IMG/VR virus record: IMGVR_UViG_2561511241_000004
Span: 1-40,856 of that record
DNA: 40,856 bases
Origin: a virus
Taxonomy: Duplodnaviria > Heunggongvirae > Uroviricota > Caudoviricetes
Reading direction: 5' to 3' (one strand)
Shown here one piece after another: positions 1,990-39,226 of this stretch (its first letter is position 1; each line of letters opens with the position of its first letter). The position numbers were made by a program, and so were the translations under genes. Below the pieces are notes generated by a model that worked only from the letters and a program-made list of their open reading frames with translations, ran no database searches and was not told where the DNA came from.

Positions 1990-3675
1990 TTAAAAATCAG
2001 CCTGACTCGGGATCAGTTTTTGCCAGATAGCTGAAACGTATTTTGCCTGGTAACGAGCGTCATCAAGTGCATTATGGCGCTCACCTTCGAATGGAATAGC
2101 CGTTCTGGCATCGAAGTCTATGGCTTTCCCCAGCTCAACGATTGTGCGTACATCGCGATCGTTGTAGTAACGCCACGGGCAGGGGATCCCCTGCCGTTCG
2201 TATGAACGGCGCAAAATCGTGTTGTCGAAGTTGGCTCCATTTCCCCAAACCTGAACAAAAAATTCACCGGAGTTTTCGTCGATAAATTCCCGCAATTGTA
2301 ACAGTGCATCATCTAACGGGATTTCATCGGTCATAATGGCAGATTGCGCTTCGCGTGATTGCTTAAGCCACCATTTAATGGTGTCCCGATCAATGACTCC
2401 GCCAGCAGTTTCCAGATCGATAGTCTTACTAAATTCCGGTCCCATATCTCCGGTTTGCGGATCGAAAAATATTGCACCTATTGAGATGATCGGGGCATCA
2501 GGATTTTTTCCCATGGTTTCAAGGTCGATCATTAGATGGTCACACGTCCTGCTGGTGGATGTGATTTCTTGATGACCGTTCACCTTAATTGGGTGATCTG
2601 CCGTCTCGCCAGTTTCATTATCGCTATCGTGATGCTGATTGCCGCCAGTGTTCTCCTTGTGTGGATGTTCAGCGCCTTCCATTTCCTCCGGATCATCTTC
2701 CTGAACTTCAACCTGATACTCTTCATCGAATGTTTCCTGGTATGTAGCGTCGCCCATCACCGCGCCACAATCAGGGCAGTTGCCGCCGCCGGTCTGACCG
2801 CAGGCGGTGCAGACTTTTTCCACTTCCTGTTGCACTACTGGTTCAGGTAGTTTCGTTTCTGGCTCGTTTTGTTGCGTATTTTGGCTGTTTTGTTCCGCTT
2901 TCTGGTCGTTCTGTTCCGTTTCTTGCTGGTTCTGGTTCACAGAATCGCGGGTTTCAATCCCCTTCACCCATTTCGGATCATTCGGATCGCTAATCCCTGC
3001 AACAAATTCACCACGTGATACTGCAAGCAGTTCATCGGCGTCAGGCTGGCTGATATTGGCTGCCTGCATAATTTTGTTTACTTCGTCAGCGGTAACTTTT
3101 ACCGGCCCTGGTTGTGCGGTCGTGTCAGATGCACCAGTATTTTGTTGTGAACCTGAGTATGTACCGTTTTTGCGGGCGAAATATTCTTCTTTCGTGATTT
3201 CAGTAGCCCCTGCAGCCAGTGCCTTATCCAGACCAGAAAGTTTGTTTGCGCGACCGTATTTTTCGCTATCCTTGTCGGTGAAGAGGAAGTAGAACGGCCC
3301 TTCACGCTCTACAGATGGTTCGACTTCCACTTTGCATTCGGTTTTTTCGTTGTCCGGAATTGCCGTTTCCACTGCATCAGTTTCTGGTACTGGCGACGAG
3401 AGAGTATCAGTTGCGCTCTGATTTCTTCCTTCATCTTCAAACACGCCCTTTGTAGTCAGGTATTCAGTAATGTATTTGTTCAGTGCCACAGGGTCTTTGT
3501 GAATGTCGATCGGACGTTCACGGACAAGGCCAAAAATAGTCTGGCGGTCGTAGCGAAGGGCATCAGGCTGTTTGCGCATTGATGCCGAGATACGCTTCCA
3601 GTCTTCGCGGTCGTTGTCGATAACTTCTTTTTTTGCCCAGCGATGGATGCTGCCGTCAATGTTTCCGGCATCCAC
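1990..3675 (-). CDS. exonuclease, C-terminal portion with DnaQ-like DEDDh 3'-5' exonuclease domain; out of frame with the upstream portion
   Basis: C-terminal region carries Exo-like motifs (LMIDLETMG, WGNGANFD, HNALDDA); frame opens only about 30 nt upstream of its GTG, and the preceding ORF runs into junk sequence here. Confidence 0.6.
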   Translation of the reverse strand: MDAGNIDGSIHRWAKKEVIDNDREDWKRISASMRKQPDALRYDRQTIFGLVRERPIDIHKDPVALNKYITEYLTTKGVFEDEGRNQSATDTLSSPVPETDAVETAIPDNEKTECKVEVEPSVEREGPFYFLFTDKDSEKYGRANKLSGLDKALAAGATEITKEEYFARKNGTYSGSQQNTGASDTTAQPGPVKVTADEVNKIMQAANISQPDADELLAVSRGEFVAGISDPNDPKWVKGIETRDSVNQNQQETEQNDQKAEQNSQNTQQNEPETKLPEPVVQQEVEKVCTACGQTGGGNCPDCGAVMGDATYQETFDEEYQVEVQEDDPEEMEGAEHPHKENTGGNQHHDSDNETGETADHPIKVNGHQEITSTSRTCDHLMIDLETMGKNPDAPIISIGAIFFDPQTGDMGPEFSKTIDLETAGGVIDRDTIKWWLKQSREAQSAIMTDEIPLDDALLQLREFIDENSGEFFVQVWGNGANFDNTILRRSYERQGIPCPWRYYNDRDVRTIVELGKAIDFDARTAIPFEGERHNALDDARYQAKYVSAIWQKLIPSQADF

Positions 3676-4460
3676 ATCACAGGCCAGAGAGCGTAGGCCA
3701 GTTCGTCATCCAGTGTTTTCCATGTCTGCTTGTATTCGCGATGAGTGGCAGCAATGACCGGGCTGATTTTTCCTGTTGAATTTTCAGTGTTCTGTTGATT
3801 GGCTCTGGCGCGGGCGAGATCAACAACAGACGTGTATTTTCCGGTTTCCTTGCGTTCACCTTCGCGACGTTTTTTCCAGATGCGCATCTCTGCCTGAATT
3901 TCGGGCCATTTAGCACCAGGAATACATTTATGCTTAACCCACCCAATGGCGTGCAACTTAAGCTCCGGATACATGGCGTTAACTTCTGGCATTTTCATCA
4001 ACGCTTCAACGATATGTCCGTCGAATGTTGCCATGTCTTCCTGCAACAATTCCTGTGCGCTAATAACCATATCAACGGTTATGTTTTCACATGTGTCGAA
4101 CTTAACCATGACAGCGTTCTGTACTTCAGGGGCCAGCTTGTCAAAAGTGACGTTCATCGGATCGGATTCAGTCTCAACCGGGACAAAAGAAGCAGACTCC
4201 TCATCCCAGCGGTTTTCCTGCATATATTCAGCATCCCATGAATCGAGGGCAGGGCAGGGTATGCCAGGTTTATCCTCGCAGACAATAAATTTATAAGCGC
4301 AGTCCTGAGCAGCCGGATAATGTTCCAGGAATTGCCAGTGAAATTTTGCTCGAGCACGGCGTTCGTCGCCAGCTTCAATGGCTGTGGCTACAGCCACAGC
4401 GCCTTCTTCCCTTGTTGCCAGTTCGTCAGGAATAGCGGCGCAAATAAAGACTTTACTCAT
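3480..4460 (-). CDS. exonuclease N-terminal portion (YdfE-like), separated from the C-terminal portion by a frame change near 3670-3706
   Basis: Protein-like translation up to about 3680, then low-complexity junk to the stop at 3480; ATG at 4460 preferred. Confidence 0.5.
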   Translation of the reverse strand: MSKVFICAAIPDELATREEGAVAVATAIEAGDERRARAKFHWQFLEHYPAAQDCAYKFIVCEDKPGIPCPALDSWDAEYMQENRWDEESASFVPVETESDPMNVTFDKLAPEVQNAVMVKFDTCENITVDMVISAQELLQEDMATFDGHIVEALMKMPEVNAMYPELKLHAIGWVKHKCIPGAKWPEIQAEMRIWKKRREGERKETGKYTSVVDLARARANQQNTENSTGKISPVIAATHREYKQTWKTLDDELAYALWPVMWMPETLTAASIAGQKKKLSTTTAKTGSVSRHQCANSLMPFATTARLFLALSVNVRSTFTKTLWH

Positions 4461-4552
4461 TTGTTTTAACCTCATGACAGATTTAAGGATGAACAAATCC
4501 CTGCCATTGCTGGCATATAAGAATGAAACCGGATATTTATTACGGAACTGTT

Positions 4553-4744
4553 TTAAAGACCTGCCGGGATTTCGATATTATCCTGGTGAATAACTTTATC
4601 GACCGGGTAACAGTTACCGGGAATTTTCTGTTCGGTTGCTGCAGTCATACACTCCTGCATTGTCCTGTGAACACTGACTGCAATATCAACTGGCTCTCCG
4701 GAAACAAGAAAAACTGTCAGAACAAGCACAAATGCTGAATTCAT
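4553..4744 (-). CDS. ydfD: YdfD-like small membrane (lysis) protein, 63 aa
   Basis: 63 aa with N-terminal hydrophobic segment; start overlaps the dicB stop (ATGA); position matches Qin ydfD downstream of dicB. Confidence 0.6.
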   Translation of the reverse strand: MNSAFVLVLTVFLVSGEPVDIAVSVHRTMQECMTAATEQKIPGNCYPVDKVIHQDNIEIPAGL

Positions 4745-4929
4745 TGTGCACATCCTTTTGGCATCAGACGTAAACGAGCCAGCATTGAAACAATGCATAT
4801 TTTATTTAATAGCTCCCGTTCTTGTTTTCTCTTGTTAATGGCATCTTCAGTAAATACAGGGTTACTGATAGTGACACCAATTTCAAAACAACCTTCAGAC
4901 GTATTAACGTTTGGTAATAACGTTTTCAT
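4741..4929 (-). CDS. dicB: cell division inhibitor DicB (62 aa)
   Basis: Translation MKTLLPNVNTSEGCFEIGVTISNPVFTEDAINKRKQERELLNKICIVSMLARLRLMPKGCAQ matches my recollection of DicB; GAGGA RBS. Confidence 0.8.
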   Translation of the reverse strand: MKTLLPNVNTSEGCFEIGVTISNPVFTEDAINKRKQERELLNKICIVSMLARLRLMPKGCAQ

Positions 4930-5104
4930 TATCGCGTCCTCAACAATGAATTTTGTGATGCAGTGCCTGGTGCCTCCAGGTGACGTTAACCAGTTAACAA
5001 TTAACGCCGGATACAGAGAATCCACCCATAACACTGTTTTTGGTTTTAACTGTTCCGCGTGCGCTTAGCCGCATTCACCGCATCACAAAATTCACTTTAA
5101 AAAA

Positions 5105-5158
5105 GGGCGGCAGAGCAGTCACGGAGTAAAAACTGATACCGCCAAACGTCACCAGAAA
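5105..5158 (-). ncRNA. dicF: DicF small RNA (ftsZ-targeting, Hfq-dependent in K-12)
   Basis: Minus-strand sequence UUUCUGGUGACGUUUGGCGGUAUCAGUUUUUACUCCGUGACUGCUCUGCCGCCC followed by a U-run; matches recollected DicF; sits just upstream of dicB as in Qin. Confidence 0.75.
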
Positions 5159-5491
5159 ATTGATAACAGAGGGCGTTGCAGCGGGGTTGTCACTTAAGCG
5201 TATGGTCAACCTGACAACCCGGTGTCCTCAACGGGGAAGGAATAACCCCGCCATACTTACCGCCGCGCCATTTCGCGGGTTGCCACAACCGGAAGCGCAC
5301 GGTCGACGAAAATTTAACGACAGGCTATCTATGAACCAGCTACCTCGCCGTGCGCTTTCGCGTTATGGTCTGACTTTTCAGGGAAATATCCTTTCAGTAA
5401 ACTGTCAGTGCCGGATGTTCACCCGTGTCCGGCGCACGCACTCCACCTCACCCGTGGAGAACTCCTTAATTACCAACCCTCAGGAGGGTGA

Positions 5492-5725
5492 ATGTTAAAA
5501 TCAACTCTTATTGCTAAATGCCTTTATCAAAATCGCATGGTAAGCAGCATTTCAATAGGCGAGTCTGCAGTTAAAAGTATTTTCGAAGAGTACTTCCCCG
5601 GGCATGATTTTAATAAATGGAATACCAAATTACCGCCAGCAGTTTCAACGCGTATTCTGAAAGCAACTGAAAGAGCAAGTACAATTCGCGTTAACTATTT
5701 CATTAAAGATTTGTGGGATCTTTGA
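5492..5725 (+). CDS. hypothetical protein (77 aa), convergent with the early-left operon
   Basis: Strong AGGAGG SD 4 nt before the ATG; AT-rich; overlaps the 3' end of the 135-aa minus-strand gene by 23 nt. Confidence 0.3.
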   Translation: MLKSTLIAKCLYQNRMVSSISIGESAVKSIFEEYFPGHDFNKWNTKLPPAVSTRILKATERASTIRVNYFIKDLWDL

Positions 5726-6110
5726 TATCCACAGAGCCTAAAGTATGTGCATATGGATGTGCTATTGTGCGCCCTCGCAGATTTGCATCATTTTCTAAAT
5801 TCACTGAACGAAACAGGGCATCAACAAGGCTCTGTACAATGCAAAGGCAATCGAAGACTGTCGCTGTTTCTGTTTTGATTGATGAAAGAACATGGCCATT
5901 CACGCAAACAGAAATTACCCGTTCATTAACATCGCTTTCCTGCTTTTGATTATCAGAACCATATAGCCCAGAAAAAGCATTGCGCACATTACGAACCATA
6001 TTATCGATGGTTTCTTTTTTGGTGTATGCCGGGTCAATTTTCACCAGACTATCACCGAGAGTCGTTGCAGCAATTGTCTGGATTTCTTTTGGTAAATCTT
6101 TAAATTCCAT
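5703..6110 (-). CDS. hypothetical protein (135 aa) in an AT-rich island between ydfC and the dicF precursor
   Basis: Good ORF with a GAGG RBS, immediately downstream of ydfC; no family recognised. Confidence 0.55.
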   Translation of the reverse strand: MEFKDLPKEIQTIAATTLGDSLVKIDPAYTKKETIDNMVRNVRNAFSGLYGSDNQKQESDVNERVISVCVNGHVLSSIKTETATVFDCLCIVQSLVDALFRSVNLENDANLRGRTIAHPYAHTLGSVDIKDPTNL

Positions 6111-6132
6111 TATTAGCCTCGTTGGTTAGCTA

Positions 6133-6351
6133 TTAACGTGGGTATGTAATCATTCTGGCAATGCTTAATGCCGCTGCTTTTTCCAGATTGGTGATATCCT
6201 GCTCCAGAGAGAACAGATTTTCAGCCTGCTTAGCCCTGGCTTCATTAGCCCATTTCAGATCCTGCGCTGCATTAATTTTCTGGCGCATCCACTCATAAAG
6301 TTCATCATCGGTATAGTCTGGCGCGATGATGACAGGTTCTCGTTTCTGCAT
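6133..6351 (-). CDS. ydfC: YdfC-like protein (72 aa)
   Basis: 72 aa from the ATG at 6351 with an AAGGAG RBS; length and position match Qin ydfC upstream of dicF. Confidence 0.6.
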   Translation of the reverse strand: MQKREPVIIAPDYTDDELYEWMRQKINAAQDLKWANEARAKQAENLFSLEQDITNLEKAAALSIARMITYPR

Positions 6352-6443
6352 GTCAGCTCCTTGTGGTTCGCATTGCCTGCTTTTAACCACGTCAGGCGAG
6401 GTGGTATCCTCTGAGGGGTCTGTTACTCGAGAGGAAATTGGTT

Positions 6444-6644
6444 ATGAATACAATCAAGTTTTCTTGCCCAGAATGTGGTGGCGAAGTCTTTGACACATCC
6501 TTTAAGCCGCAGGGCTCTGACAGTTTCGCGGGAGCCATCTGCAAAAATTGTGGTCACCTTGTAACTGAAGATGAGTCCTCGCAGTTCGATGACGAAATCG
6601 TTGACAATATCTTCGGTGCACTCACCAGAGACTTTCTGAAATAA
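6444..6644 (+). CDS. small zinc-ribbon protein (CPECGG ... CKNCGH), 66 aa
   Basis: Two CxxC motifs 24 aa apart; GAGG RBS 9 nt upstream; entirely antisense to an alternative 118-aa minus-strand ORF (6423..6779). Confidence 0.4.
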   Translation: MNTIKFSCPECGGEVFDTSFKPQGSDSFAGAICKNCGHLVTEDESSQFDDEIVDNIFGALTRDFLK

Positions 6645-6968
6645 AGACGCATACCGCTTAGTTACCGCTCTGATAACTCTTACCTGTCCGGCAATGGCGC
6701 TGATGTCAATATAAAGCGCCATTGCTGCTTCTTTGCCGATCCCGTGATGCCTTCCATTCTGATGTTTGACTTCGCCCACTGAGAAATCCTCTGTTTCCCC
6801 TTAACGCCGGGGTAGCGGAACAAAAACCTGCTGCATAGTTATTAAAGTTGGACCCTGCCGTCATGTTCTTACGCCTCAGGCTGGCTACTTAACCCCTGAC
6901 CACTGCCTGGTAACTCGAAGTATTGCCCTGCATTCTGTGGGGCGGGGTGGGTTGGTATGAAAAGAAGG

Positions 6969-7007
6969 ATACCCATAGGTATTTAAAAAGTAAATACCCA
7001 TGGGTAA
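6969..7007. promoter_or_regulatory. OL-like operator pair (ATACC-N4-GGTAT and ATACC-N4-GGTAA) with probable leftward early promoter
   Basis: Two 14-bp palindromes centred about 25 bp apart, sharing half-sites with the three OR sites. Confidence 0.5.
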
Positions 7008-7048
7008 CTTTTTGCGGTGTCTTAACTGGTGACTAGTTGTTTGGTGAG

Positions 7049-7468
7049 CTATGATGCGTTTTGTGCTTTCTTTTTACGGATTTCTTCGTAGATCATATTG
7101 TAATACTGTTTTTTCTCTTCAAGAGTTTTTAATAAGTTATCCGCTTCACTTTCTGGCAGTTCGTCTAAGAGATCTAAAAAAATACGTTGTCGTGGCGTTA
7201 GAACCCTTGTTTCATAACTGGAGGCTGTGTTCGTTGATGATGAAACGATACCATCCATCCATCCCCGGGGTAACCCAAAGGACTCTTCGATAATCTCCAC
7301 CATATCATCAGCGATCCGTTTTTTTCCCTTTTTCCCCTCTGGGTACAACATTCTTGATACATAAGAAGGCTCGCGCCCGATCTTTCTGGCCACGTTAACC
7401 GCTTTACCATCGCATTTCTCATCACGAATTTTGATGAGTTGCTGTCGTCTAAATTCATATTTGTCCAT
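7049..7468 (-). CDS. prophage repressor (HTH DNA-binding protein, cI-like role)
   Basis: Divergent from the cro-like gene across an operator-rich spacer; start at 7468 (MDKYEF...) has no SD and sits 7 nt after a TATTAT -10, consistent with a leaderless transcript; the ORF track extends to 7522. Confidence 0.65.
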   Translation of the reverse strand: MDKYEFRRQQLIKIRDEKCDGKAVNVARKIGREPSYVSRMLYPEGKKGKKRIADDMVEIIEESFGLPRGWMDGIVSSSTNTASSYETRVLTPRQRIFLDLLDELPESEADNLLKTLEEKKQYYNMIYEEIRKKKAQNAS

Positions 7469-7487
7469 AGGTAAATAATAGATGCGA

Positions 7488-7540
7488 TTACCGCAAGGTA
7501 AACAACCTGCGGGTATTGACATTTGTTTACCTGTGGGTAT
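7488..7540. promoter_or_regulatory. OR-like tripartite operator with rightward promoter (TTGACA -35 at 7516-7521)
   Basis: Three TTACC-N4-GGTA(A/T) sites at 7488-7501, 7504-7517 and 7527-7540 overlapping the -35/-10 of the cro-like gene. Confidence 0.5.
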
Positions 7541-7568
7541 TCTTTACTGTGTTTACTAAGGAGTAGCT

Positions 7569-7850
7569 ATGGAAGAATTAAGAATATTTCTCAATTCTCT
7601 TTCGTCAGATGAACAGCGTATGTTTGCATGCGAGTGTGGTACCAGCATCGGTTATCTAAGAAAGGCATTGAGTAAAGGTCAAGTGTTAGGGGCATCGTTA
7701 TGTGTCCTTATTGAGCGAGCCAGTAATGGTGAAGTTACACGTCAGCAACTAAGGCCTTTTGATTGGATGAATATTTGGCCCGAGCTGGAAGATACCAAAA
7801 CGTTAACACAACCACTTTCTAGGAGCTTGATTCATGAAAATCAAGCATGA
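7569..7850 (+). CDS. Cro-like / YdaS-family HTH regulator
   Basis: 93 aa, first rightward gene after the operators; AAGGAG RBS; HTH-like segment GTSIGYLRKALSKGQ. Confidence 0.6.
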   Translation: MEELRIFLNSLSSDEQRMFACECGTSIGYLRKALSKGQVLGASLCVLIERASNGEVTRQQLRPFDWMNIWPELEDTKTLTQPLSRSLIHENQA

Positions 7851-8259
7851 ACACATCCGCATGGCGATGAATGCCTGGGCGCATCCGGACGGTGAAAAAG
7901 TTCCGGCAGCTGAAATAACCAGGGCTTATTTTGAACTGGGTATGACGTTCCCAGAACTGTATGACGACAGCCATCCGGAAGCCCTGGCTCGCAATACCCA
8001 GAAAATTTTCCGCTGGATAGAGAAAGACACCCCTGATGCAGTTGAAAAAATTCAGGCGTTGTTACCAGCGATCGAAAAGGCAATGCCACCTTTGCTGGTG
8101 GCCAGAATGCGCAGCCACAGTTCAGCTTATTTTCGGGAGCTGGTGGAGACGCGGGAGCGACTGGTGAGAGACGCTGATGATTTTGTCGCAGTGGCAATCG
8201 CCGGTTTCAATCAGATGAACCGTGGTGGCCCGGCAGGAAATGCTGTGGCAGTACATTGA
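7834..8259 (+). CDS. YdaT-like protein (Rac prophage family)
   Basis: 141 aa beginning MKIKHEH and ending ...VH, as recollected for Rac YdaT; overlaps the end of the cro-like gene. Confidence 0.55.
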   Translation: MKIKHEHIRMAMNAWAHPDGEKVPAAEITRAYFELGMTFPELYDDSHPEALARNTQKIFRWIEKDTPDAVEKIQALLPAIEKAMPPLLVARMRSHSSAYFRELVETRERLVRDADDFVAVAIAGFNQMNRGGPAGNAVAVH

Positions 8260-8330
8260 CTGACAATAGCCATATCGAATCGCTTCCGGCAACTCGTGAG
8301 TAAAAAGATTCGGTATCAGAAGAGGTGAGT

Positions 8331-9401
8331 ATGGCTAACGCCTGGCTCAGATTATGGCATGACATGCCAAATGACCCTAAGTGGCGAACAATTGCCAGGG
8401 TGTCAGGGCAGCCAATTGCAACAGTGATGGCAGTGTATATCCACCTCCTGGTGAGCGCGTCACGAAATGTCACGCGAGGTCACATTGATGTCACGACAGA
8501 AGATTTGGCAAGTGCGCTCGACGTGACAGAAGAGGTAATTGATTCAATTTTGCAGACGATGCAGGGGCGGGTACTTGATGGTGATTTAATCACTGGATGG
8601 GAAAAACGCCAGGTGCTTAAAGAGGACAACGGCAATATTTCGCAAACCGCAAAATCTCCTGCAGAGCGCAAGAGGGCGCAGCGAGAGAGGGAAAGAAAGC
8701 GGGAACAAAATGGCGATTGTCACGGCGCGTCACGAAATGTCACGCACATGTCACGACGAGTCACGACAGATAAAGATACAGATAAAGATACAGATCAAGA
8801 AGATCAAAACACTATGGTCCATGGCGTAAAAAACGCCACGAACCAGGCAGGGGATGTTCAGACCGTCAATCTTGGTCAGCCAGCAGGCACGACACCGGAA
8901 GCCGATTCAGCGTATGCGCTGAAAGCCGATTCGGGCGCTGTGCAGCAGGTGATGACCGCAAGGCCGGAGCAATCACACCAACTGCAGCAGCCTGAAGCCG
9001 ATTCCGCCATTCAGCGGGAAGCCGATCGGGTAGTCCCGGAAAACACCGGGCAGTCTGTGGGACGAGTGGATTATCCGGATGTGTTCGAACAGGTCTGGCG
9101 GGAGTACCCGTTGCGTGCCGGGGCAAACCCGAAGAAATCCGCTTTCAGTGCCTGGAAGGCCAGATTACGCGAGGGGGTGCCACCAGAGGCAATGCTGGAT
9201 GGCGTGAGGCGTTACGCAAGATACCTAGCGGTTACCGGGAAAACGGGAACGGAATTTGTTCAGCGGGCGACGACGTTTTTTGGACCGGACCGGAATTTTG
9301 AAAACCCCTGGTTGCTCCCGGTAAGCGGCACGAACAACCAGCGTTGTGTGAATCATATTTCTGAACCGGATACCGAAATTCCGCCGGGCTTCAGGGGGTA
9401 A
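8331..9401 (+). CDS. replication initiation protein: replisome-organizer-like N-terminal domain fused to a DnaT-like C-terminal domain
   Basis: N-terminus WLRLWHDMPNDPKWR; C-terminus ends ...SEPDTEIPPGFRG, like the C-terminus of E. coli DnaT; contains iterons; AGAGGTGAG RBS. Confidence 0.65.
   Translation: MANAWLRLWHDMPNDPKWRTIARVSGQPIATVMAVYIHLLVSASRNVTRGHIDVTTEDLASALDVTEEVIDSILQTMQGRVLDGDLITGWEKRQVLKEDNGNISQTAKSPAERKRAQRERERKREQNGDCHGASRNVTHMSRRVTTDKDTDKDTDQEDQNTMVHGVKNATNQAGDVQTVNLGQPAGTTPEADSAYALKADSGAVQQVMTARPEQSHQLQQPEADSAIQREADRVVPENTGQSVGRVDYPDVFEQVWREYPLRAGANPKKSAFSAWKARLREGVPPEAMLDGVRRYARYLAVTGKTGTEFVQRATTFFGPDRNFENPWLLPVSGTNNQRCVNHISEPDTEIPPGFRG
8459..8495. repeat. iteron cluster 1: four GTCAC(G/A) copies at about 10-bp spacing (candidate ori element)
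   Basis: Copies at 8459, 8469, 8479 and 8490, inside the replication gene. Confidence 0.5.
8719..8810. repeat. iteron cluster 2 (five GTCACG copies) plus A-rich tandem repeat (gataaagataca x2, gatcaagaagatcaa)
   Basis: Copies at 8719, 8729, 8739, 8750 and 8760, then the AT-rich repeat; resembles the lambda ori layout inside O. Confidence 0.5.
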
Positions 9402-9441
9402 GTGTTTATTTCAGCTCATGAGGTAATTATCAGGAGGAGTT

Positions 9442-9867
9442 GTGGCAAAAGTTTTTACACAAGAAGAGCGGGAAAAAATTAAAGGGCAGGTTGTTGAACT
9501 TGTACGCCAGAGTGGGCGCGAGACGTTACGTCAACTGGAAGCCAAGACAGGTGCGACAAGATATCTGATGAGCGTTCTCGCAAGAGAGCTGGTTGCCAGC
9601 GGCGATGTATACAACTCTGGTTACGGGTTATTCCCGTCTGAACAGGCTCGTAAGGACTGGCAAAATGCCCGCAAAAAACTCTCAAGGGCAAAGCTGAAGA
9701 AAAAAACATCTGTGGTTGATCCGGACCTTATCTGGTCGTTACCAGACGGAGAAATACGCCGCTATGACAGGCGTCTGAACATAATCTGTCGCGAGTGCCG
9801 GAATAGTGAAGTTATGCAGCGTGTACTGGCTTTCTATCAGGGGAATTTTCAGGAGGCGGCGCAGTGA
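9442..9867 (+). CDS. hypothetical protein (141 aa, GTG start)
   Basis: AGGAGG RBS 5 nt upstream of the GTG; no helicase-loader or AAA motifs seen. Confidence 0.5.
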   Translation: MAKVFTQEEREKIKGQVVELVRQSGRETLRQLEAKTGATRYLMSVLARELVASGDVYNSGYGLFPSEQARKDWQNARKKLSRAKLKKKTSVVDPDLIWSLPDGEIRRYDRRLNIICRECRNSEVMQRVLAFYQGNFQEAAQ

Positions 9868-10064
9868 GCAGGATTGACTACCAGGAATTGGCTGCTGCTA
9901 ACGCTTCCCTGGCTGATGTACGGGCGGTGGCGTTTAACGACCTTTGCGCGGCGTTTGCCAGGCACGCAAAAGTTGCAGGACTGGATGATGCCGATACCGT
10001 AACGCTTAAGGAAGTGACAGAAGCATTGTTGCATTGTGCGGAACAGATTCGCGCGCCTGAATAA
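9864..10064 (+). CDS. hypothetical protein (66 aa, GTG start, GTGA overlap with the upstream gene)
   Basis: AGGAGG RBS 7 nt upstream; translationally coupled. Confidence 0.4.
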   Translation: MSRIDYQELAAANASLADVRAVAFNDLCAAFARHAKVAGLDDADTVTLKEVTEALLHCAEQIRAPE

Positions 10065-10159
10065 TTAAATTTAGTGTTGTAAATAAAATTTAATCCTTAA
10101 CCGGAGGGATTTCTGCACCCTCAGAACATCAGGAGGCCGCCCGAAAGGGCGGTAATGAA

Positions 10160-12940: not shown

Positions 12941-12941
12941 C

Positions 12942-13991: not shown

Positions 13992-14003
13992 AAGAGGTTA
14001 CTG

Positions 14004-30787: not shown

Positions 30788-30791
30788 ACCC

Positions 30792-31535
30792 ATGACAGAG
30801 ACAGAATCAGCGATTCTGGCGCACGCCCGGCGATGTGCGCCAGCGGAGTCGTGCGGCTTCGTGGTGAGAACGCCGGAGGGGGACAGATATTTTCCCTGCG
30901 TGAATATCTCCGGTGAGCCGGAGGCGTATTTCCGGATGTCGCCGGAGGACTGGCTGCGGGCAGAGATGCAGGGTGAGATTGTGGCGCTGGTCCACAGCCA
31001 CCCCGGTGGTCTGCCCTGGCTGAGTGAGGCCGACCGGCGGCTGCAGGTGCAGAGTGATTTGCCGTGGTGGCTGGTCTGCCGTGGGGAGATTCATAAATTC
31101 CGCTGTGTGCCGTATCTCACCGGGCGGCGCTTTGAGCACGGGGTGACGGACTGTTACACGCTGTTCCGGGATGCTTACCATCTGGCGGGGATTGAGATGC
31201 CGGATTTTCATCGCGAGGATGACTGGTGGCGTCACGGTCAGAATCTCTATCTGGATAATCTGGAGGCCACAGGGCTGTATCAGGTGCCGTTGTCAGCGGC
31301 GCAGCCGGGCGATGTGCTGCTGTGCTGTTTTGGTTCATCGGTGCCGAATCATGCCGCCATTTACTGTGGTGACGGCGAGCTGCTGCACCATATTCCTGAA
31401 CAACTGAGCAAACGAGAGAGGTATACCGACAAATGGCAGCGACGCACACAATCCCTCTGGCGTCACCAGGCATGGCACGCATCTGCCTTTACGGGGATTT
31501 ACAACGATTTGTCCGCCGCATCGATCTGCGTGTGA
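30792..31535 (+). CDS. K: tail assembly protein K (JAB/MPN plus NlpC/P60-like)
   Basis: Lambda K-like (HSHPGG...); overlaps the start of I. Confidence 0.85.
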   Translation: MTETESAILAHARRCAPAESCGFVVRTPEGDRYFPCVNISGEPEAYFRMSPEDWLRAEMQGEIVALVHSHPGGLPWLSEADRRLQVQSDLPWWLVCRGEIHKFRCVPYLTGRRFEHGVTDCYTLFRDAYHLAGIEMPDFHREDDWWRHGQNLYLDNLEATGLYQVPLSAAQPGDVLLCCFGSSVPNHAAIYCGDGELLHHIPEQLSKRERYTDKWQRRTQSLWRHQAWHASAFTGIYNDLSAASICV

Positions 31536-32074
31536 AAACGGGGGCCGAAGCCATCCGGGCGCTGGCCATGCAGATCCCGGCGTTTCGTCAGAAGCTGAGC
31601 GACGGCTGGTATCAGGTACGCATTGCCGGGCGTGATACAGGTGAAACGGAATTATCAGCCCGTCTTAATGAACCGCTGGCAAATGGTGCTGTGATCCATA
31701 TCGTGCCGCGTCTGGCAGGAGCCAAAAGTGGCGGTGTGTTTCAGGCTGTGCTGGGGGCGGCTGTTATGGCGGTTGCTATATGGATGCCGGGGGTAGGAAT
31801 TATGGCGAGTAATCTGCTGTTTTCTCTCGGTGCCAGTATGACGCTTGGCGGTGTTGCACAGATGCTGGCCCCTAAACCCAAAACCCCCCGCACACAGACA
31901 ACGGATAACGGCAAACAGAACACCTATTTTTCTTCACTGGATAATATGGTTGCCCAGGGCAATGTTCTGCCCGTTCTGTACGGTGAAATGCGCGTGGGAT
32001 CACGTGTGGTATCTCAGGAGATCAGCACAGCAGATGAAGGTGATGGTGGTCAGGTTGTGGTGATTGGTCGCTGA
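31433..32074 (+). CDS. I: tail assembly protein I
   Basis: Near-identical to lambda I at both ends (MAATHTIPLASPGMARICLYGDLQRF... ...EGDGGQVVVIGR). Confidence 0.9.
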   Translation: MAATHTIPLASPGMARICLYGDLQRFVRRIDLRVKTGAEAIRALAMQIPAFRQKLSDGWYQVRIAGRDTGETELSARLNEPLANGAVIHIVPRLAGAKSGGVFQAVLGAAVMAVAIWMPGVGIMASNLLFSLGASMTLGGVAQMLAPKPKTPRTQTTDNGKQNTYFSSLDNMVAQGNVLPVLYGEMRVGSRVVSQEISTADEGDGGQVVVIGR

Positions 32075-32134
32075 TGAAAAACGTTTTATGTGAAACCGCC
32101 TCCGGGCGGTTTTATCGTTTATGGAGCATGACGA

Positions 32135-35100
32135 ATGGGTAAAGGCAGCAGTAAGGGGCATACCCCGCGCGAAGCGAAGGACAACCTGAAATCCACGCAG
32201 CTGCTGAGTGTGATTGATGCCATCAGCGAAGGGCCGATTGAAGGTCCGGTGGATGGATTAAAAAGCGTGCTGCTGAACAGTACGCCAGTGCTGGACAGTG
32301 AGGGGAATACCAACATCTCCGGCGTCACGGTGGTGTTCCGGGCCGGTGAGCAGGAGCAGACACCGCCGGAGGGATTTGAATCCTCCGGCTCCGAGACGGT
32401 GCTGGGTACGGAAGTGAAATACGACACGCCGATCACCCGGACCATCACGTCGGCAAACATTGACCGACTGCGTTTTACCTTCGGCGTGCAGGCACTGGTG
32501 GAAACCACCTCAAAGGGGGACAGGAATCCGTCGGAAGTCCGCCTGCTGGTTCAGATACAGCGTAATGGTGGCTGGGTGACGGAAAAAGACATCACCATTA
32601 AGGGCAAAACCACCTCGCAGTATCTGGCCTCGGTGGTGGTGGGTAACCTGCCGCCGCGCCCGTTCAATATACGGATGCGCAGGATGACGCCGGACAGCAC
32701 CACAGACCAGCTGCAGAACAAAACGCTCTGGTCGTCATACACCGAAATCATCGATGTGAAACAGTGCTACCCGAACACGGCACTGGTCGGCGTGCAGGTG
32801 GACTCGGAGCAGTTCGGCAGCCAGCAGGTGAGCCGTAATTATCATCTGCGCGGGCGTATTCTGCAGGTGCCGTCGAATTATAACCCGCAGACGCGGCAAT
32901 ACAGCGGTATCTGGGACGGAACGTTTAAACCGGCATACAGCAACAACATGGCCTGGTGTCTGTGGGATATGCTGACCCATCCGCGCTACGGCATGGGGAA
33001 ACGTCTTGGTGCGGCGGATGTGGATAAATGGGCGCTGTATGTCATCGGCCAGTACTGCGACCAGTCAGTGCCGGACGGCTTTGGCGGCACGGAGCCGCGC
33101 ATCACCTGTAATGCGTACCTGACCACACAGCGCAAGGCGTGGGATGTGCTCAGTGATTTCTGCTCGGCGATGCGCTGTATGCCGGTATGGAACGGGCAGA
33201 CGCTGACGTTCGTGCAGGACCGGCCATCAGATAAGGTGTGGACCTATAACCGCAGTAATGTGGTGATGCCGGATGATGGTGCGCCGTTCCGCTACAGCTT
33301 CAGCGCCCTGAAGGACCGCCATAATGCCGTTGAGGTGAACTGGATTGACCCGAATAACGGCCAGGAGACGGCGACAGAGCTTGTGGAGGATACGCAGGCC
33401 ATTGCCCGTTACGGTCGTAACGTCACGAAAATGGATGCCTTTGGCTGTACCAGCCGGGGGCAGGCACACCGAGCCGGGCTGTGGCTGATTAAAACGGAGC
33501 TGCTGGAAACGCAGACCGTGGACTTCAGCGTGGGTGCTGAAGGGCTTCGCCATGTGCCGGGCGATGTCATTGAAATCTGCGATGATGACTATGCCGGTAT
33601 CAGCACCGGTGGTCGCGTGCTGGCGGTGAACAGCCAGACCCGGACGCTGACGCTCGACCGTGAAATCACGCTGCCATCCTCCGGCACCACGCTGATAAGC
33701 CTGGTTGACGGAAATGGCAATCCGGTCAGCGTGGAGGTTCAGTCCGTCACCGACGGCGTGAAGGTGAAAGTGAGCCGGGTTCCTGACGGCGTTGCTGAAT
33801 ACAGCGTGTGGGGGCTGAAGTTGCCGACGTTGCGCCAGCGCCTGTTCCGCTGTGTGAGTATCCGTGAGAACGATGACGGCACGTATGCCATCACTGCCGT
33901 GCAGCATGTACCGGAAAAAGAGGCCATCGTGGATAACGGGGCGCACTTTGACGGCGACCAGAGCGGCACGGTGAATGGTGTCACGCCGCCAGCGGTGCAG
34001 CACCTGACCGCCGAAGTCACCGCAGACAGCGGGGAATATCAGGTGCTGGCGCGCTGGGACACGCCGAAGGTGGTGAAGGGCGTGAGCTTCCTGCTCCGTC
34101 TGACCGTAACAGCGGATGACGGCAGTGAGCGGCTGGTCAGCACGGCCCGGACGACGGAAACCACATACCGCTTCACGCAACTGGCGCTGGGGAACTACAG
34201 GCTGACTGTCCGGGCTGTAAATGCGTGGGGACAGCAGGGCGAGCCGGCATCGGTATCGTTCCGGATTGCCGCACCGGCAGCGCCGTCTCGGATTGAGCTG
34301 ACACCGGGCTATTTTCAGATAACCGCCACGCCGCATCTTGCGGTTTATGATCCGACGGTACAATTTGAGTTCTGGTTCTCGGAAACGCGGATTACCGATA
34401 TCAGGCAGGTTGAAACCACAGCCCGCTACCTTGGCACGGGGCTGTACTGGATAGCCGCCAGTATCAATATCAAACCGGGCCATGATTATTACTTTTATAT
34501 CCGCAGTGTGAACACCGTTGGCAAATCGGCATTCGTGGAGGCCGTCGGTCGGGCGAGCGATGATGCGGAAGGTTACCTGGATTTTTTCAAAGGCAAGATA
34601 ACCGAATCCCATCTTGGTAAAGAGCTGCTGGAAAAAGTCGACCTGACGGAGGATAACGCCAGCAAACTGGAGCAGTTTTCGAAAGAGTGGAAGGATGCCA
34701 ACGATAAATGGAATGCCATGTGGGCTGTCAAAATTGAGCAGACCAAAGACGGCAAACATTATGTCGCGGGTATTGGCCTCAGTATGGAGGACACGGAGGA
34801 AGGCAAACTGAGCCAGTTTCTGGTTGCCGCTAACCGTATCGCGTTTATTGACCCGGCAAACGGGAATGAAACGCCGATGTTTGTGGCGCAGGGCAATCAG
34901 ATATTCATGAACGACGTGTTCCTGAAACGCCTGACGGCCCCCACCATTACCAGTGGTGGAAATCCACCGGCATTTTCCCTGACACCGGATGGGCGGCTGA
35001 CGGCGAAAAATGCCGATATCAGCGGTAACGTGAATGCGAACTCCGGGACGCTCAACAACGTCACGATTAACGAGAACTGTCGGGTTCTGGGAAAACTGTC

Positions 35101-35530
35101 CGCGAACCAGATTGAAGGCGATCTCGTTAAAACAGTGGGCAAAGCTTTCCCCCGGGACTCCCGTGCACCGGAACGGTGGCCATCAGGGACCATTACCGTC
35201 AGGGTTTATGACGATCAGCCGTTTGACCGGCAGATTGTTATTCCGGCGGTGGCATTCAGCGGCGCTAAACATGAGAGAGAGCATACTGATATTTACTCCT
35301 CATGCCGTCTGATAGTGCGGAAAAACGGTGCTGAAATTTATAACCGTACCGCGCTGGATAATACGCTGATTTACAGTGGCGTTATTGATATGCCTGCCGG
35401 TCACGGTCACATGACGCTGGAGTTTTCGGTGTCAGCATGGCTGGTAAATGACTGGTATCCCACAGCAAGTATCAGCGATTTGCTGGTTGTGGTGATGAAG
35501 AAAGCCACCGCAGGCATCAGTATCAGCTGA
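32135..35530 (+). CDS. J: tail tip / host specificity protein J
   Basis: 1131 aa, lambda J-like throughout, including fibronectin-like repeats and a C-terminal receptor-binding region. Confidence 0.95.
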
Positions 35531-35548
35531 ATTTTATAACCCATATAC

Positions 35549-35575
35549 GGGCGCCAGAAATGGCGCCTTTTTTAT
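35549..35575 (+). terminator. rho-independent terminator after J
   Basis: ggcgcca-gaaa-tggcgcc followed by tttttt. Confidence 0.6.
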
Positions 35576-35597
35576 TGCAGAAAAGCGAGAGGTAATT

Positions 35598-36197
35598 ATG
35601 CGTAAAGTTTGTGCAGCCATTTTGTCCGCAGCCATCTGTCTGTCCGTATCCGGTGCGCCTGCATGGGCGTCTGAACATCAGTCCACACTGAGCGCAGGGT
35701 ATCTTCATGCCCGTACGAACGCTCCCGGCAGCGATAATCTGAACGGGATTAACGTGAAATACCGTTATGAGTTTACGGACACGCTGGGGCTGATTACGTC
35801 CTTCAGTTATGCCAATGCTGAGGATGAGCAAAAAACGCACTACAGCGATACCCGCTGGCATGAAGATTCCGAGCGTAATCGCTGGTTCAGCGTGATGGCG
35901 GGGCCGTCTGTACGCGTGAATGAATGGTTCAGCGCGTATGCGATGGCGGGTGTGGCTTACAGCCGTGTGTCGACTTTCTCCGGGGATTATCTCCGCGTAA
36001 CTGACAACAAGGGGAAAAAGCACGATGTGCTGACCGGAAGTGATGACGGTCGCCACAGCAACACGTCTCTGGCGTGGGGAGCTGGCGTGCAGTTTAACCC
36101 GACCGAATCCGTGGCCATTGATGTCGCTTATGAAGGCTCCGGCAGTGGTGACTGGCGCACTGACGGGTTCATCGTGGGTGTTGGTTATAAATTCTGA
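35598..36197 (+). CDS. lom: outer membrane protein Lom (Ail/Lom family)
   Basis: Near-identical to lambda Lom; signal peptide; ends ...GFIVGVGYKF. Confidence 0.9.
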   Translation: MRKVCAAILSAAICLSVSGAPAWASEHQSTLSAGYLHARTNAPGSDNLNGINVKYRYEFTDTLGLITSFSYANAEDEQKTHYSDTRWHEDSERNRWFSVMAGPSVRVNEWFSAYAMAGVAYSRVSTFSGDYLRVTDNKGKKHDVLTGSDDGRHSNTSLAWGAGVQFNPTESVAIDVAYEGSGSGDWRTDGFIVGVGYKF

Positions 36198-36223
36198 TTA
36201 GCCAGGTAACACAGTGTTATGAC

Positions 36224-36250
36224 AGCCCGCCGGTTCAGGCGGGCTTTTTT
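36224..36250 (+). terminator. rho-independent terminator after lom
   Basis: gcccgcc-ggttca-ggcgggc followed by tttttt. Confidence 0.6.
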
Positions 36251-36261
36251 GTGGGGTGAAT

Positions 36262-39009
36262 ATGGCAGTAAAAATTTCAGGTGTACTGAAAGACGGCACA
36301 GGAAAACCGGTACAGAACTGCACAATCCAGCTGAAAGCAAAACGTAACAGTACCACGGTGGTGGTGAACACGCTGGCATCTGAAAATCCGGATGAAGCCG
36401 GGCGTTACAGCATGGACGTTGAGTACGGTCAGTACAGCGTTATTTTGTTGGTGGAGGGATTCCCGCCGTCACATGCCGGGACCATCACCGTGTATGAAGA
36501 TTCTCAACCCGGTACGCTGAATGATTTTCTCGGTGCCATGACGGAGGATGATGCCCGTCCGGAGGCACTGCGCCGCTTTGAACTGATGGTGGAAGAGGTG
36601 GCGCGTAACGCGTCCGCAGTGGCGCAGAACACAGCAGCCGCGAAGAAGTCAGCCAGCGATGCCAGCACATCAGCCCGTGAGGCGGCAACCCATGCGACTG
36701 ATGCTGCAGGCTCAGCACGTGCAGCCAGCACATCAGCCGGGCAGGCCGCGACGTCGGCTCAGTCAGCGTCTTCCAGCGCAGGAACGGCATCAACAAAGGC
36801 TACTGAAGCATCAAAAAGTGCTGCCGCTGCAGAGTCCTCAAAAAGCGCGGCAGCTACCAGTGCCAGTGCCGCGAAAACGTCAGAAACGAATGCGGCAGCG
36901 TCACAAAAATCTGCAGCCACTTCTGCATCCACCGCGACCACGAAAGCGTCAGAAGCTGCCACCTCAGCCCGGGATGCGGCGGCCTCAAAAGAGGCAGCGA
37001 AATCATCAGAAACGAGCGCAGCCTCGAGCGCCAGCAGCGCAGCTTCCTCGGCAACGGCGGCAGGAAATTCCGCGAAGGCGGCAAAGACGTCCGAGACGAA
37101 CGCCAGGTCTTCTGAAACGGCAGCGGGACAGAGTGCCTCAGCTGCGGCAGGCTCAAAAACAGCGGCTGCATCATCTGCCAGTGCCGCGTCAACAAGTGCC
37201 GGGCAGGCCTCAGCCAGTGCCACCGCTGCCGGAAAGTCGGCAGAAAGTGCCGCATCGTCTGCTTCAACAGCCACAACGAAGGCTGGCGAAGCCACTGAAC
37301 AGGCCAGCGCAGCAGCGAGGTCAGCTTCCGCAGCGAAGACATCCGAAACGAACGCGAAAGCGTCGGAAACCCGTGCAGAATCCTCAAAAACGGCTGCCGC
37401 ATCGTCAGCCAGTTCGGCGGCGTCATCGGCATCATCGGCGTCTGCTTCAAAAGATGAGGCGACCAGACAGGCGTCAGCAGCGAAGGGCAGCGCCACGACA
37501 GCATCCACGAAGGCGACAGAGGCAGCTGGCAGTGCGACGGCGGCAGCACAGAGCAAAAGTACGGCGGAATCCGCGGCAACGCGCGCCGAGACAGCGGCAA
37601 AACGGGCAGAGGATATTGCATCCGCCGTGGCGCTTGAGGATGCGAGCACGACGAAAAAGGGGATAGTACAGCTCAGCAGTGCGACCAACAGCACGTCTGA
37701 AACGCTGGCGGCAACGCCAAAGGCAGTTAAAACTGTTAAAGATAGTTCAGTTCAAAAAACTGGCGACACAATGGGAGGGCAGTTAAAAATCAGCACGATA
37801 AATGCTCTTCGAATATTCAACCAAGCCTTTGGCCTTATTTTTAGGCGTTCCGAAGATCATCTTCATCTTATTCCGACTAATGAAGGGGAGGGGGAAAATG
37901 GAGACATCGGTTCATTAAGACCATTCTCTATAAACTTAAGATCAGGGTTGGTGTCCATCGGTAATGGACTAAAAGTTGGTGGTAGTGTTACTGGTAATTT
38001 GACCGGAAACGCAGATACTGCGACCAAGATCAAGACAGCACGTAAGATTGGGGGCGTGGCATTTGATGGATCGGCAGATATCAACTTGCCTGGAGTCAAC
38101 GCTACCGGTAATCAAAACACTACAGGTAATGCTGCGACCGCCACGAAACTTCAGGCAGCCAGAACGATTAACGGTGTGTCATTTGATGGTAGTGCAAATA
38201 TCACATTGACCCCTTCAAATATTGGGGCATTGGCATTAACTGGAGGGACTCTTTCAGGTGGTTTAACTGCTGCTGGTGAGGTTATTTCAAGGTCAGCAAA
38301 TGGTCTGCGTATTGCCTATGGCAACTATGGATTCTTTATCCGAAATGATGGATTAAACACATATTTTATGTTGACAGATTCGGGTAACAGGCTTGGTACG
38401 TACAATAGCTTAAGGCCGTTTATAATTAGTAACCATACTGGCAATGTTACAATTGCAACTAAATTAAACGCGAGTGGTGGTATCACTGGATCTTTATCGG
38501 GTAATGCAAGCACAGCAACCAAATTGCAAACTGCAAGGACAATTAACGGCGTAAAATTTGACGGCTCGGCAAATATTGAAGCGTTTCCGCCAGGTGTTCC
38601 GCTGCCGTGGCCATCAGATACACCACCTGCAGGTTATGCAATCATGCAGGGGCAGACGTTTGATAAGGCAGCATATCCGAAACTGGCTATTGCCTATCCT
38701 TCAGGTGTTATTCCAGATATGCGCGGCTGGACAATCAAGGGCAAACCCGCCAGTGGTCGGGCCGTATTGTCTCAGGAACAGGACGGCATTAAATCGCACA
38801 CCCACAGCGCCAGCGTATCCAGTACGGATTTGGGGACGAAAACCACATCGTCGTTTGATTACGGCACTAAATCCACGAATAACACTGGTGCGCATACCCA
38901 TAGTGTTAGCGGTACGGCTGCTTCAGCCGGTGCACATACCCATTCGATGACATTTGTTTCAGGTGGTTCCAGTGGTGCTCCGGGAAGTGGATCACCTGAT
39001 TATTACTAA
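36262..39009 (+). CDS. stf: side tail fibre protein (Stf-like) with long Ala/Ser/Thr-rich repeat region; frame breaks about 70 codons before the expected C-terminus
   Basis: Conserved N-terminus [16 protein letters not shown]; low-complexity repeat 36600-37650; GAHTHS repeats near the 3' end; ends ...GSGSPDYY. Confidence 0.8.
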
Positions 39010-39226
39010 ATACAGTGTTAACACTTCTTCTGCAGGCGCTCATACGCACTCTGTATCGGGTACTGCTGCAAGCGCAGGTGCACACGCACATACTGTCGGT
39101 ATTGGTGCTCATACGCACTCCGTTGCGATTGGTTCACATGGACATACCATCACCGTTAACGCTGCTGGTAACGCGGAAAACACCGTCAAAAACATCGCAT
39201 TTAACTATATTGTGAGGCTTGCGTAA
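38954..39226 (+). CDS. Stf C-terminal segment in an alternate frame (canonical ...[13 protein letters not shown] end)
   Basis: Repeats the [17 protein letters not shown] motif and ends exactly where tfa starts. Confidence 0.5.

Follow-up and report, generated by a model that had tools for sequence, protein, structure and literature searches.

How should a prophage be read in which several essential genes carry frame disruptions while other long genes are intact? The question is raised by a stretch of 40,856 nucleotides (the window, by which we mean this whole stretch of DNA), for which a preliminary description offered two readings, a defective prophage or localized sequence errors. The window corresponds to approximately 1364882-1405737 of CP002729.1, the chromosome of E. 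coli UMNK88, whose loci match it at 100% identity. Work on porcine enterotoxigenic E. coli uses UMNK88 as a standard reference genome; if the breaks were accepted as deposited, the prophage would be scored as defective, pseudogene counts would be inflated, and DicF and a tape measure gene would be mis-annotated.

Results

Layout of the prophage

Gene calls and Pfam hits for CP002729.1 outline the element as follows.

572..40533, no strand assigned: lambdoid prophage between potC and potB
Early genes: int, xis, exo, ydfD, dicB, DicF, repressor/cro, replication genes, hokD/sok, DUF968, rusA, Q
tRNA, lysis and head genes: four tRNAs, holins, M15 endolysin, HNH, terS, terL, portal, protease, major capsid, connectors
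Tail and cargo genes: tail tube, G/T, tape measure, M, L, K, I, J, lom, stf, tfa, methyltransferase

The order int-xis-exo...Q-lysis-terS/terL-portal-protease-capsid-tail tube-G/T-tape measure-M-L-K-I-J-stf-tfa, for which we also used the RefSeq annotation of relatives, and the Pfam families in the CP002729.1 gene calls both match a lambdoid prophage with an HK97-type head and a lambda-type tail. By these gene calls the complement of genes is full, and there is no IS element in the prophage. No break affects J, TerL or the major capsid protein, whose exact products are found on 45, 498 and 86 other contigs, respectively; the portal ORF is likewise whole, and its 413 aa equal the length given to it in relatives. 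These four genes had been described as clean, and they are. The 408-aa capsid call begins at an odd ATA start, and for that reason has no entry of its own on record.

Sites of the one-base changes

Frame breaks had been reported in the exonuclease, terminase small subunit, tape measure, side tail fiber and one tRNA. All are present at or near the positions given for them, and each is a 1-bp indel. The affected features, leaving the tRNA for later, are these.

1990..4460, minus strand: Rac-type exonuclease, 823 aa if intact, split into ORFs of 326 aa and 499 aa
5105-5157 (entry 5099..5157), minus strand: DicF sRNA, which gains a U in its interior and another in the terminator tract
16045..16049, no strand assigned: intergenic C-run, C5 here and C4 in 12/12 aligned relatives, a private insertion
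17988..18471, plus strand: terminase small subunit (P27 family), 160 aa if intact, with one extra A
26524..29755, plus strand: tail tape measure gene, 1075 aa if intact, left by four 1-bp insertions as ORFs of 483 aa and 528 aa
36262..39226, plus strand: side tail fiber gene, 987 aa if intact, with an extra A at 39005, 74 codons before its end

In the exonuclease, nucleotide alignment places the break at 3680, where a 1-bp deletion has removed one C of a plus-strand CC (a G on the coding strand), and tblastn with intact orthologs switches from frame -1 to frame -3 at about the same position. The best matches listed for this site each cover 552 nt against a query of 551 nt and thus carry the extra base. 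Both exonuclease fragments are found on the UMNK88 contig only. In two relatives (L051 and L054) the frame is unbroken across 3680, the gene running off the contig end in both, and the repaired protein of 823 aa has the length of its orthologs, with an exact match absent from the collection. Just 5' of the exonuclease ATG, at 4460, there is a private change from T4 to T3. An unrelated ENA metagenome contig has a +2 frameshift of its own six bases away from the exonuclease site.

Two further changes private to the UMNK88 assembly fall in DicF, one in its interior (A4 to A5, the A-run at 5128-5132) and one in the terminator tract at 5099-5104 (A5 to A6 at 5099). The private one-base changes at 4460, 5099, 5128 and 16045 had all escaped the preliminary description.

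The terminase small subunit gene has gained an A at 18057-18060 (A3 to A4, by nucleotide alignment), and tblastn with intact orthologs switches from frame 3 to frame 1 at about 18030-18075. The break had been assigned to an A7 run; that run is native and unchanged, and the altered A3 run lies 10 nt upstream of it. As deposited, TerS meets a stop at codon 31, leaving a 106-aa C-terminal ORF at 18151-18471, and the repaired protein is identical to P0287, which an exact look-up finds on at least 1000 contigs. The truncated 106-aa product has a second UMNK88 accession, AEE57045.1, the two lying about 1000 genes apart. This fits a collapsed repeat contig that was used twice; alternatively, AEE57045.1 could be a real TerS variant copied between prophages.

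Three or more breaks had been suspected in the tape measure gene, and there are exactly four insertions: at 27821 (a C outside runs), 27897/8 (C to CC), 28070-74 (T4 to T5) and 28148-50 (A2 to A3). In tblastn with intact orthologs, the frame switches from 1 to 2 between 27821 and 28150. The fragments are unique to UMNK88, and deleting the four insertions yields a 1075-aa protein identical to P0288, present on 18 other contigs by exact look-up; a homology search with the repaired protein brought up nothing but 90%-cluster representatives, none more than 98% identical to it. The clustering is stronger than uniform placement predicts, with four of the 11 events inside 330 bp (p = 6e-4). All four insertions sit in an island of 350-420 bp with complete identity to alleles common in other prophages, and its flanks diverge from those alleles by about 10%. 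Compared with a more distant allele (L007), 82 of 104 substitutions (about 80%) are in codons unchanged in the corrected frame, and the gene was therefore under selection until the indels appeared. Across the tape-measure codons, the gene complement and the search for IS elements, we see no sign of relaxed selection or structural decay.

At the 3' end of the side tail fiber gene, nucleotide alignment puts the inserted A at 39005 outside any run, and tblastn with intact orthologs switches from frame 1 to frame 2 at about 38950-39000. The repaired product (987 aa) again has the ortholog length, and the collection holds no exact match to it.

Comparison with sister prophages

Megablast of the whole window against 5426 complete RefSeq E. 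coli genomes (a collection without NC_017641 and NZ_CP137721.1) found no sister above about 97% overall, and look-ups via the methyltransferase and via lom gave no closer sister prophages. We used as sisters near-identical loci from independent assemblies, tiled over about 35 kb. Over this tiling the window differs by 14 one-base indels and 8 substitutions. Among relatives other than UMNK88 the baseline is 193 gap openings to 4683 substitutions, a ratio of 0.041, so the ratio in the window is roughly 40-fold higher (Fisher p = 9e-15).

The same imbalance appears in single sisters. Against the window, L048 has 1 substitution and 6 indels over 14.6 kb, the Logan read-run assemblies L041-43 have 3-4 substitutions and 4 indels over 10.9 kb, L055 has 0 and 2 over 3.3 kb, L053 has 3 and 3 over 11.3 kb, and L054 has 7 and 4 over 4.6 kb. 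Over the 5.5 kb that run from 35381 to the end of the window, taken together with 2.95 kb of core flank (about 8.4 kb in all), L073 and L078 show 0 substitutions and 1 indel. A sequence lesion of a defective prophage should be shared within its lineage; here the same-lineage sisters (L073 and L078, whose core flank is identical, and the others L048 and L053-55) have intact stf, tape measure and terS. The complete genome CP137721.1 pairs an identical core flank with an unbroken stf.

In a comparison that was anchored and run-normalized, since gaps place variably inside runs, and counting as strictly private only those changes at which all aligned relatives (three or more) disagree with the window, we find 9 insertions, 1 deletion and 8 substitutions in the whole window. 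Seven coding and three non-coding indels are absent from all aligned relatives (3-15 per site), and of the 11 private indels 9 simply alter the length of a run, those at 27821 and 39005 lying outside runs, which is atypical for simple homopolymer miscalls. At the exonuclease and tape-measure sites, the best-matching complete E. coli genomes of the 5426 are all without the indels. Each of six truncated products occurs on 1 contig only among about 15 billion proteins, with intact neighbors on 40-498 contigs. In about 4.5 kb of core flank we see no private indel, where the rate in the prophage would predict about 1.8; the errors may thus be confined to repeat-rich prophage DNA.

The tRNA-Thr allele and the G/GT frameshift

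Two features of the window have to be kept apart from the private changes.

15400..15475, plus strand: tRNA-Thr(UGU), with GGG for GG at 15467-15469 in the 3' acceptor strand
26165..26172, plus strand: G/GT slippery site, an A8 run at the end of G that includes an A AAA AAG heptamer, T lying in the -1 frame

The extra G in the tRNA had been counted among the breaks. It is there, and it is also carried by six other assemblies (L019, L021, L027, L033, L046 and L053), with GG in 14 loci; being common to these assemblies, GGG is a genuine allele and not an error, which means that not every oddity in the window is an artifact. The Rfam score is 60.3 bits with GGG and 71.4 with GG. The allele is irrelevant to particle formation, and with its bulged acceptor-stem G in at least seven assemblies it might be a functional variant rather than a dead tRNA. 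We also considered tRNA-Lys (15321-15397) as the tRNA that had been flagged and rejected it, as it has no indel relative to relatives; it is a naturally odd, low-scoring phage tRNA.

At 26165-26172, tblastn reads G in frame 2 and T in frame 1, and this is the only place in the window where a conserved two-frame arrangement coincides with a slippery site. The A AAA AAG heptamer is presumably the lambda G/GT mechanism, as expected in lambda-like tail chaperones, and G/GT is the sole biologically meaningful frame change in the window.

Discussion

The indels are private to one assembly, far outnumber substitutions, and their removal restores ORFs that match intact proteins, a combination that points to base-calling or assembly error rather than decay. 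We consider it very probable that the breaks in the exonuclease, terS, tape measure and stf, together with the DicF changes and two extra bases in non-coding runs, are errors of the UMNK88 assembly (CP002729.1). Single-base errors, mostly changes in homopolymer length, would have entered the deposited sequence with the prophage itself unmutated, and the 330-bp cluster in the tape measure gene would reflect a locally poor consensus, for example at a repeat shared with other prophages or in a gap-closure read. From these comparisons we infer both the origin of the changes during sequencing or assembly and a functional prophage: what the strain really carries between potC and potB is most likely a lambdoid prophage that is intact and perhaps inducible, with an HK97-type head and a lambda-type tail. 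Of the two readings first offered, then, localized errors has strong support, and the other claim, that of a defective element that cannot make particles, is not upheld. A full-text literature search on UMNK88 found nothing on assembly quality.

Could the breaks instead be real? Recent pseudogenization would make the UMNK88 prophage defective, without packaging or tails, though still expressing dicB/DicF, hokD and lom. It takes the deposited sequence as it stands, lambdoid prophages often decay, the tRNA-Thr GGG shows that at least one oddity is real, and the +2 frameshift of the ENA metagenome contig near the exonuclease site shows that such events occur or recur. It would nevertheless need about 14 indels per 8 substitutions, roughly 40-fold above the ratio of the relatives, and private insertions exceeding deletions 9 to 1, where natural bacterial indels are expected to show the opposite bias, of deletions over insertions. 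It would also need four independent insertions packed into 330 bp of a gene that elsewhere matches its sisters at 100% over 14.6 kb, truncated products that appear in no other assembly, and same-lineage sisters with an identical core flank that keep the genes intact. We regard genuine pseudogenization as improbable by a wide margin, and would be a little more surprised still if the indels as such, some ten +1/-1 frameshifts accompanied by hardly any substitutions and including the four within 330 bp, were real in UMNK88; prophage DNA would then have to be subject to a localized mutational process biased toward insertions, of which error-prone patch synthesis is an example. Nor does programmed recoding, in which ribosomal frameshifting or transcriptional slippage at some of the breaks would make full-length proteins, offer a way out. 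A true programmed -1 site lies nearby (G/GT, 26165-26172) and A-rich runs adjoin the terS break, but programmed frameshift sites are conserved among relatives, and here all relatives have an uninterrupted frame at all seven coding sites, which already refutes this reading; we also know of no precedent for a gene that shifts frame four times within 330 bp. Its probability is negligible.

A separate matter is how the errors of the UMNK88 assembly arose. Reads from paralogous prophages may have been merged, or low-quality gap-closure reads used, so that the errors are confined to repeats, and such mis-assembly is a variant of the explanation that we prefer and no true opponent of it. Pointing this way are the tape-measure insertions within an island that equals the common alleles of other prophages between flanks about 10% diverged, the two UMNK88 accessions of the truncated TerS about 1000 genes apart, the core flank of about 4.5 kb without a private indel, and the two insertions outside runs. 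However, run-length changes make up 9 of the 11 private indels, as plain homopolymer miscalls would give, and merged paralogs should add substitutions, of which there are almost none. We hold mis-assembly, as distinct from base miscalling, to be a possible but less likely route.

The main finding contains no new biology; its practical value is as a warning on the UMNK88 reference genome. Recognizing assembly-private indels protects later work on prophage intactness, pangenomes and sRNAs, and the indel-to-substitution ratio against sister loci, combined with an exact look-up of the repaired protein, is a recipe for telling artifact from decay.

The closest parallel is with early next-generation or lightly polished "finished" genomes, whose indel errors have the same single-base, mostly run-length, insertion-biased pattern, are likewise private and outnumber substitutions, and whose split genes yield known proteins on in silico repair. 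Unlike uniform homopolymer error, 2 of 11 UMNK88 events lie outside runs and four are tightly clustered, which suggests a locally poor patch. These genes are affected in the same way in other public assemblies, for example by a split terS or terL in the NCTC loci L016/L030 and L033 and in L032. The G/GT -1 frameshift of lambda-like phages is present and conserved here, in contrast to the flagged breaks, which are absent from all relatives. With the cryptic prophages of K-12 (Rac, Qin, DLP12 and e14) the UMNK88 element shares dicB, DicF, ydfD, hokD/sok, the Rac-type exonuclease and lom. The hallmarks of those prophages are large deletions, IS insertions and lesions common to all isolates of the lineage, whereas the UMNK88 element keeps the full lambda-order gene set and its lesions are only private 1-bp indels that its same-lineage sisters lack.

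Frame breaks in the UMNK88 prophage

The ORF map, tRNA scan and Rfam scan describe a lambdoid prophage whose gene order is backed by RefSeq annotation of relatives and precomputed Pfam hits on CP002729.1. Because exact look-up returns its proteins as the GenBank AEE56xxx series of 'Escherichia coli UMNK88' and it matches loci of CP002729.1 at 100% identity across 8-21 kb, we place the window at ~1364882-1405737 of that chromosome, with potC/potD on the left of the prophage and potB/potA/pepT on the right.

Gene order of the prophage
Left part: int/xis, Rac-type exonuclease, ydfD-dicB-DicF, immunity region, replication genes, hokD/sok
Middle: DUF968-rusA-Q, four tRNAs, lysis genes, HNH-terS-terL-portal-protease-capsid
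Right part: tail genes up to J, lom, side tail fibre (stf), tfa, methyltransferase

A hok/sok module lies upstream of DUF968 (11505-11679), and tfa contains an Rfam IS009 RNA match (225 bits, 39569-39767). Between tfa and potB (39865-40856), an opposite-strand methyltransferase cargo gene precedes another, incomplete copy of tfa; this layout recurs in other strains at different insertion sites (trpA side). Long ORFs run antisense within stf (311 aa, 36759-37694, minus strand) and J (510 aa, 33227-34759, minus strand). Gene calls for the UMNK88 contig list the 311-aa ORF instead of the N-terminal two-thirds of stf, which are rich in Ala and Ser; the biased composition has probably misled gene calling here.

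With intact orthologues as tblastn queries, we see the exonuclease, terS and stf each change frame once and the tape measure shift by a net +1 over 27821-28150; J is in one frame end to end, as the preliminary description had it. Nucleotide alignment places the individual changes.

Single-base changes at the flagged sites
Exonuclease, 3680: C lost
tRNA-Thr, 15467-69: GG to GGG
terS, 18057-60: A3 run with one A added
Tape measure, 27821: C inserted
Tape measure, 27897/8: C to CC
Tape measure, 28070-74: T4 to T5
Tape measure, 28148-50: A2 to A3
stf, 39005: A added

Read as deposited, the exonuclease meets a stop at codon 327, terS at 31, the tape measure at 484 and stf at 916. All the breaks that the preliminary description reported, in these four genes and a tRNA, are thus present; its 'three or more' in the tape measure was right as to multiplicity and becomes exactly four insertions, and its terS break belongs not in the A7 run, which is native and unaltered, but in the neighbouring A3 run. 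Other private single-base changes are found at 4460, 5099, 5128 (within DicF) and 16045. DicF (5099-5157, minus strand) has U5 vs U4 in 11/11 relatives, and its terminator U-tract is also one U longer; since both extra U are private to the UMNK88 assembly, the deposited DicF is probably wrong by two bases.

The indels are private and outnumber substitutions

At the sites in the exonuclease and the tape measure, the best matches listed from 5426 complete E. coli genomes all have the uninterrupted length (552 vs 551 nt and 797 vs 801 nt in the window). The truncated products (tape measure 483 + 528 aa, stf 460 + 84 aa, exonuclease 326 + 499 aa) each occur, in a search of ~15 billion proteins, on one contig, always the 5,186,416-bp UMNK88 chromosome, while intact neighbour proteins occur on 40-498 contigs each. 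Changes opposed by every aligned relative over the whole 40.8 kb comprise 9 insertions, 1 deletion and 8 substitutions, so that 9/10 strictly private indels are insertions. Run-length changes account for 9/11 when the T-run change at 4460 is counted, and four private indels fall inside 330 bp (p = 6e-4 under uniform placement). Seven of the 11 lie in coding DNA in a window that is 90% coding; frameshifts are therefore not depleted from genes.

We then compare the window with sister prophages, near-identical loci in independent assemblies found through neighbouring intact proteins.

Differences between the window and its closest sisters (all indels 1 bp)
L048, GCA_014329425.1; 17894-32473 (14.6 kb); 1 substitution (synonymous); 6 indels
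L041-43, Logan assemblies of three read runs; 19485-30431 (10.9 kb); 3-4 substitutions; 4 indels, tape measure only
L055, GCA_021649545.1; 5063-8350 (3.3 kb); 0 substitutions; 2 indels
L054, GCA_021649485.1; 3516-8116 (4.6 kb); 7 substitutions; 4 indels
L053, GCA_021649205.1; 6235-17523 (11.3 kb); 3 substitutions; 3 indels
L073 (CP137721.1, complete genome) and L078 (GCA_053454835.1); 35381 to window end plus 2954 bp of potB-side core; 0 substitutions; 1 indel, the A at 39005

The six indels against L048 are a T-run near 17943-51, terS and the four in the tape measure; the lone substitution over those 14.6 kb is 25858, C in the window and T in 20/20 aligned relatives, synonymous in His codon 18 of G. 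Tiled over ~35 kb, the closest sisters give 14 indels vs 8 substitutions. In natural E. coli divergence substitutions far outnumber indels, and small indels are biased to deletion. As a control, pairwise alignments of other loci (1.48 Mb at >=99% identity, some of the loci visibly error-prone long-read assemblies) give 193 gap openings to 4683 substitutions, a ratio of 0.041; the window lies ~42-fold above it (Fisher p = 9e-15).

Deleting the four inserted bases opens a 1075-aa tape measure that is residue-for-residue P0288, an intact database protein (ELF97695.1 and others; 18 contigs), and repaired TerS is identical to the intact protein P0287 (>=1000 contigs). For the exonuclease and stf, repair gives 823 and 987 aa, exactly the lengths of their orthologues, with no exact match to either in the protein collection. 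Against a more distant tape-measure allele, ~80% of substitutions leave codons of the repaired frame unchanged, which argues that the gene was under selection until the indels arose.

Error, decay or recoding

Judged from sequence comparison, the private indels are very likely sequencing or assembly errors: they equal or exceed substitutions, are biased to insertion, mostly change run lengths, cluster in part within 330 bp, strike a selected tape measure, show no depletion from genes, belong to one assembly and, once repaired, yield exact real proteins. Real pseudogenisation of the UMNK88 prophage is improbable, as it would require an unprecedented indel-to-substitution ratio, insertion bias with tight clustering, and restriction to a single isolate, its same-lineage sisters being intact. 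Of the two readings offered by the preliminary description, 'localised sequence errors' is strongly supported and 'defective prophage' is not, the indels being private, more numerous than substitutions and repairable to products that equal intact proteins in sequence or in length. Programmed recoding at the flagged breaks is excluded, because no relative is two-framed at any of them. The sole conserved recoding site is the heptamer A AAA AAG in the A8 run at 26165-26172, at the end of G with T in the -1 frame, where a programmed G/GT frameshift is expected. The run is one A shorter in four other assemblies (L010, L011, L013, L014), probably through homopolymer errors of their own.

As to how such errors may have arisen, the four tape-measure insertions sit inside a 350-420 bp island identical to common alleles from other prophages, with flanks ~10% different from them. 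The same truncated 106-aa TerS occurs twice in UMNK88 (AEE56036.1 and AEE57045.1, ~1000 genes apart), apparently from a second prophage with the same broken terS, which fits one repeat consensus placed twice. No private indels occur in ~4.5 kb of core flank. Together, the shared island, duplicate TerS and clean flank tentatively suggest assembly or closure trouble in repeated prophage segments rather than a uniform miscall rate. The genome was presumably pyrosequenced.

The tRNA genes

The extra G is confirmed in the acceptor stem (3' strand) of tRNA-Thr(UGU) (15400-15475), where it makes a bulge or mismatch and lowers the Rfam score (60.3 bits vs 71.4 with GG). GGG also occurs in six related loci from several projects (L019, L021, L027, L033, L046, L053), GG in 14, and L021 equals the window exactly for 4.4 kb left of the site. 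GGG is thus a real allele in at least seven assemblies including the window, not an error like the breaks it was grouped with. The neighbouring 'tRNA-Lys(UUU)' (15321-15397) has a C as nucleotide 33, its D and T stems are weak, and it scores 35.6 bits (44.4 in relatives having G at 15345); RefSeq likewise annotates the relatives' copies as tRNA-Lys. It is a naturally odd phage tRNA, perhaps a degenerate or atypical one. In tRNA-Gly, acceptor pair 6-67 (15485, 15545) is C-G in the window and T-A in strain CV839-06, a compensatory change and ordinary variation under selection on structure.

Relation to known systems

The breaks fall in a class with the artefactual indels of assemblies that are early or were little polished, and in this region the widely used UMNK88 reference would have a spurious 1-bp indel roughly every 3-4 kb. 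Within the same prophage family, terS, terL or protease is split at other positions in L016/L030 (GCA_900448605.1), L032 and L033 (GCA_900448105.1); UMNK88 is thus not alone in having frameshift artefacts there. An independent exonuclease allele, P0271 (94% identical, on a 9705-bp ENA metagenome contig), has a +2 change that resembles expansion of a CT repeat and lies six bases upstream of the site in UMNK88 (~3680-3690), leading to the same alternative frame and stop. In its cargo genes the window prophage is like Rac and Qin, two cryptic prophages of K-12, but it lacks the features that define them, shared lesions, deletions and IS insertions, and should be treated as probably intact.
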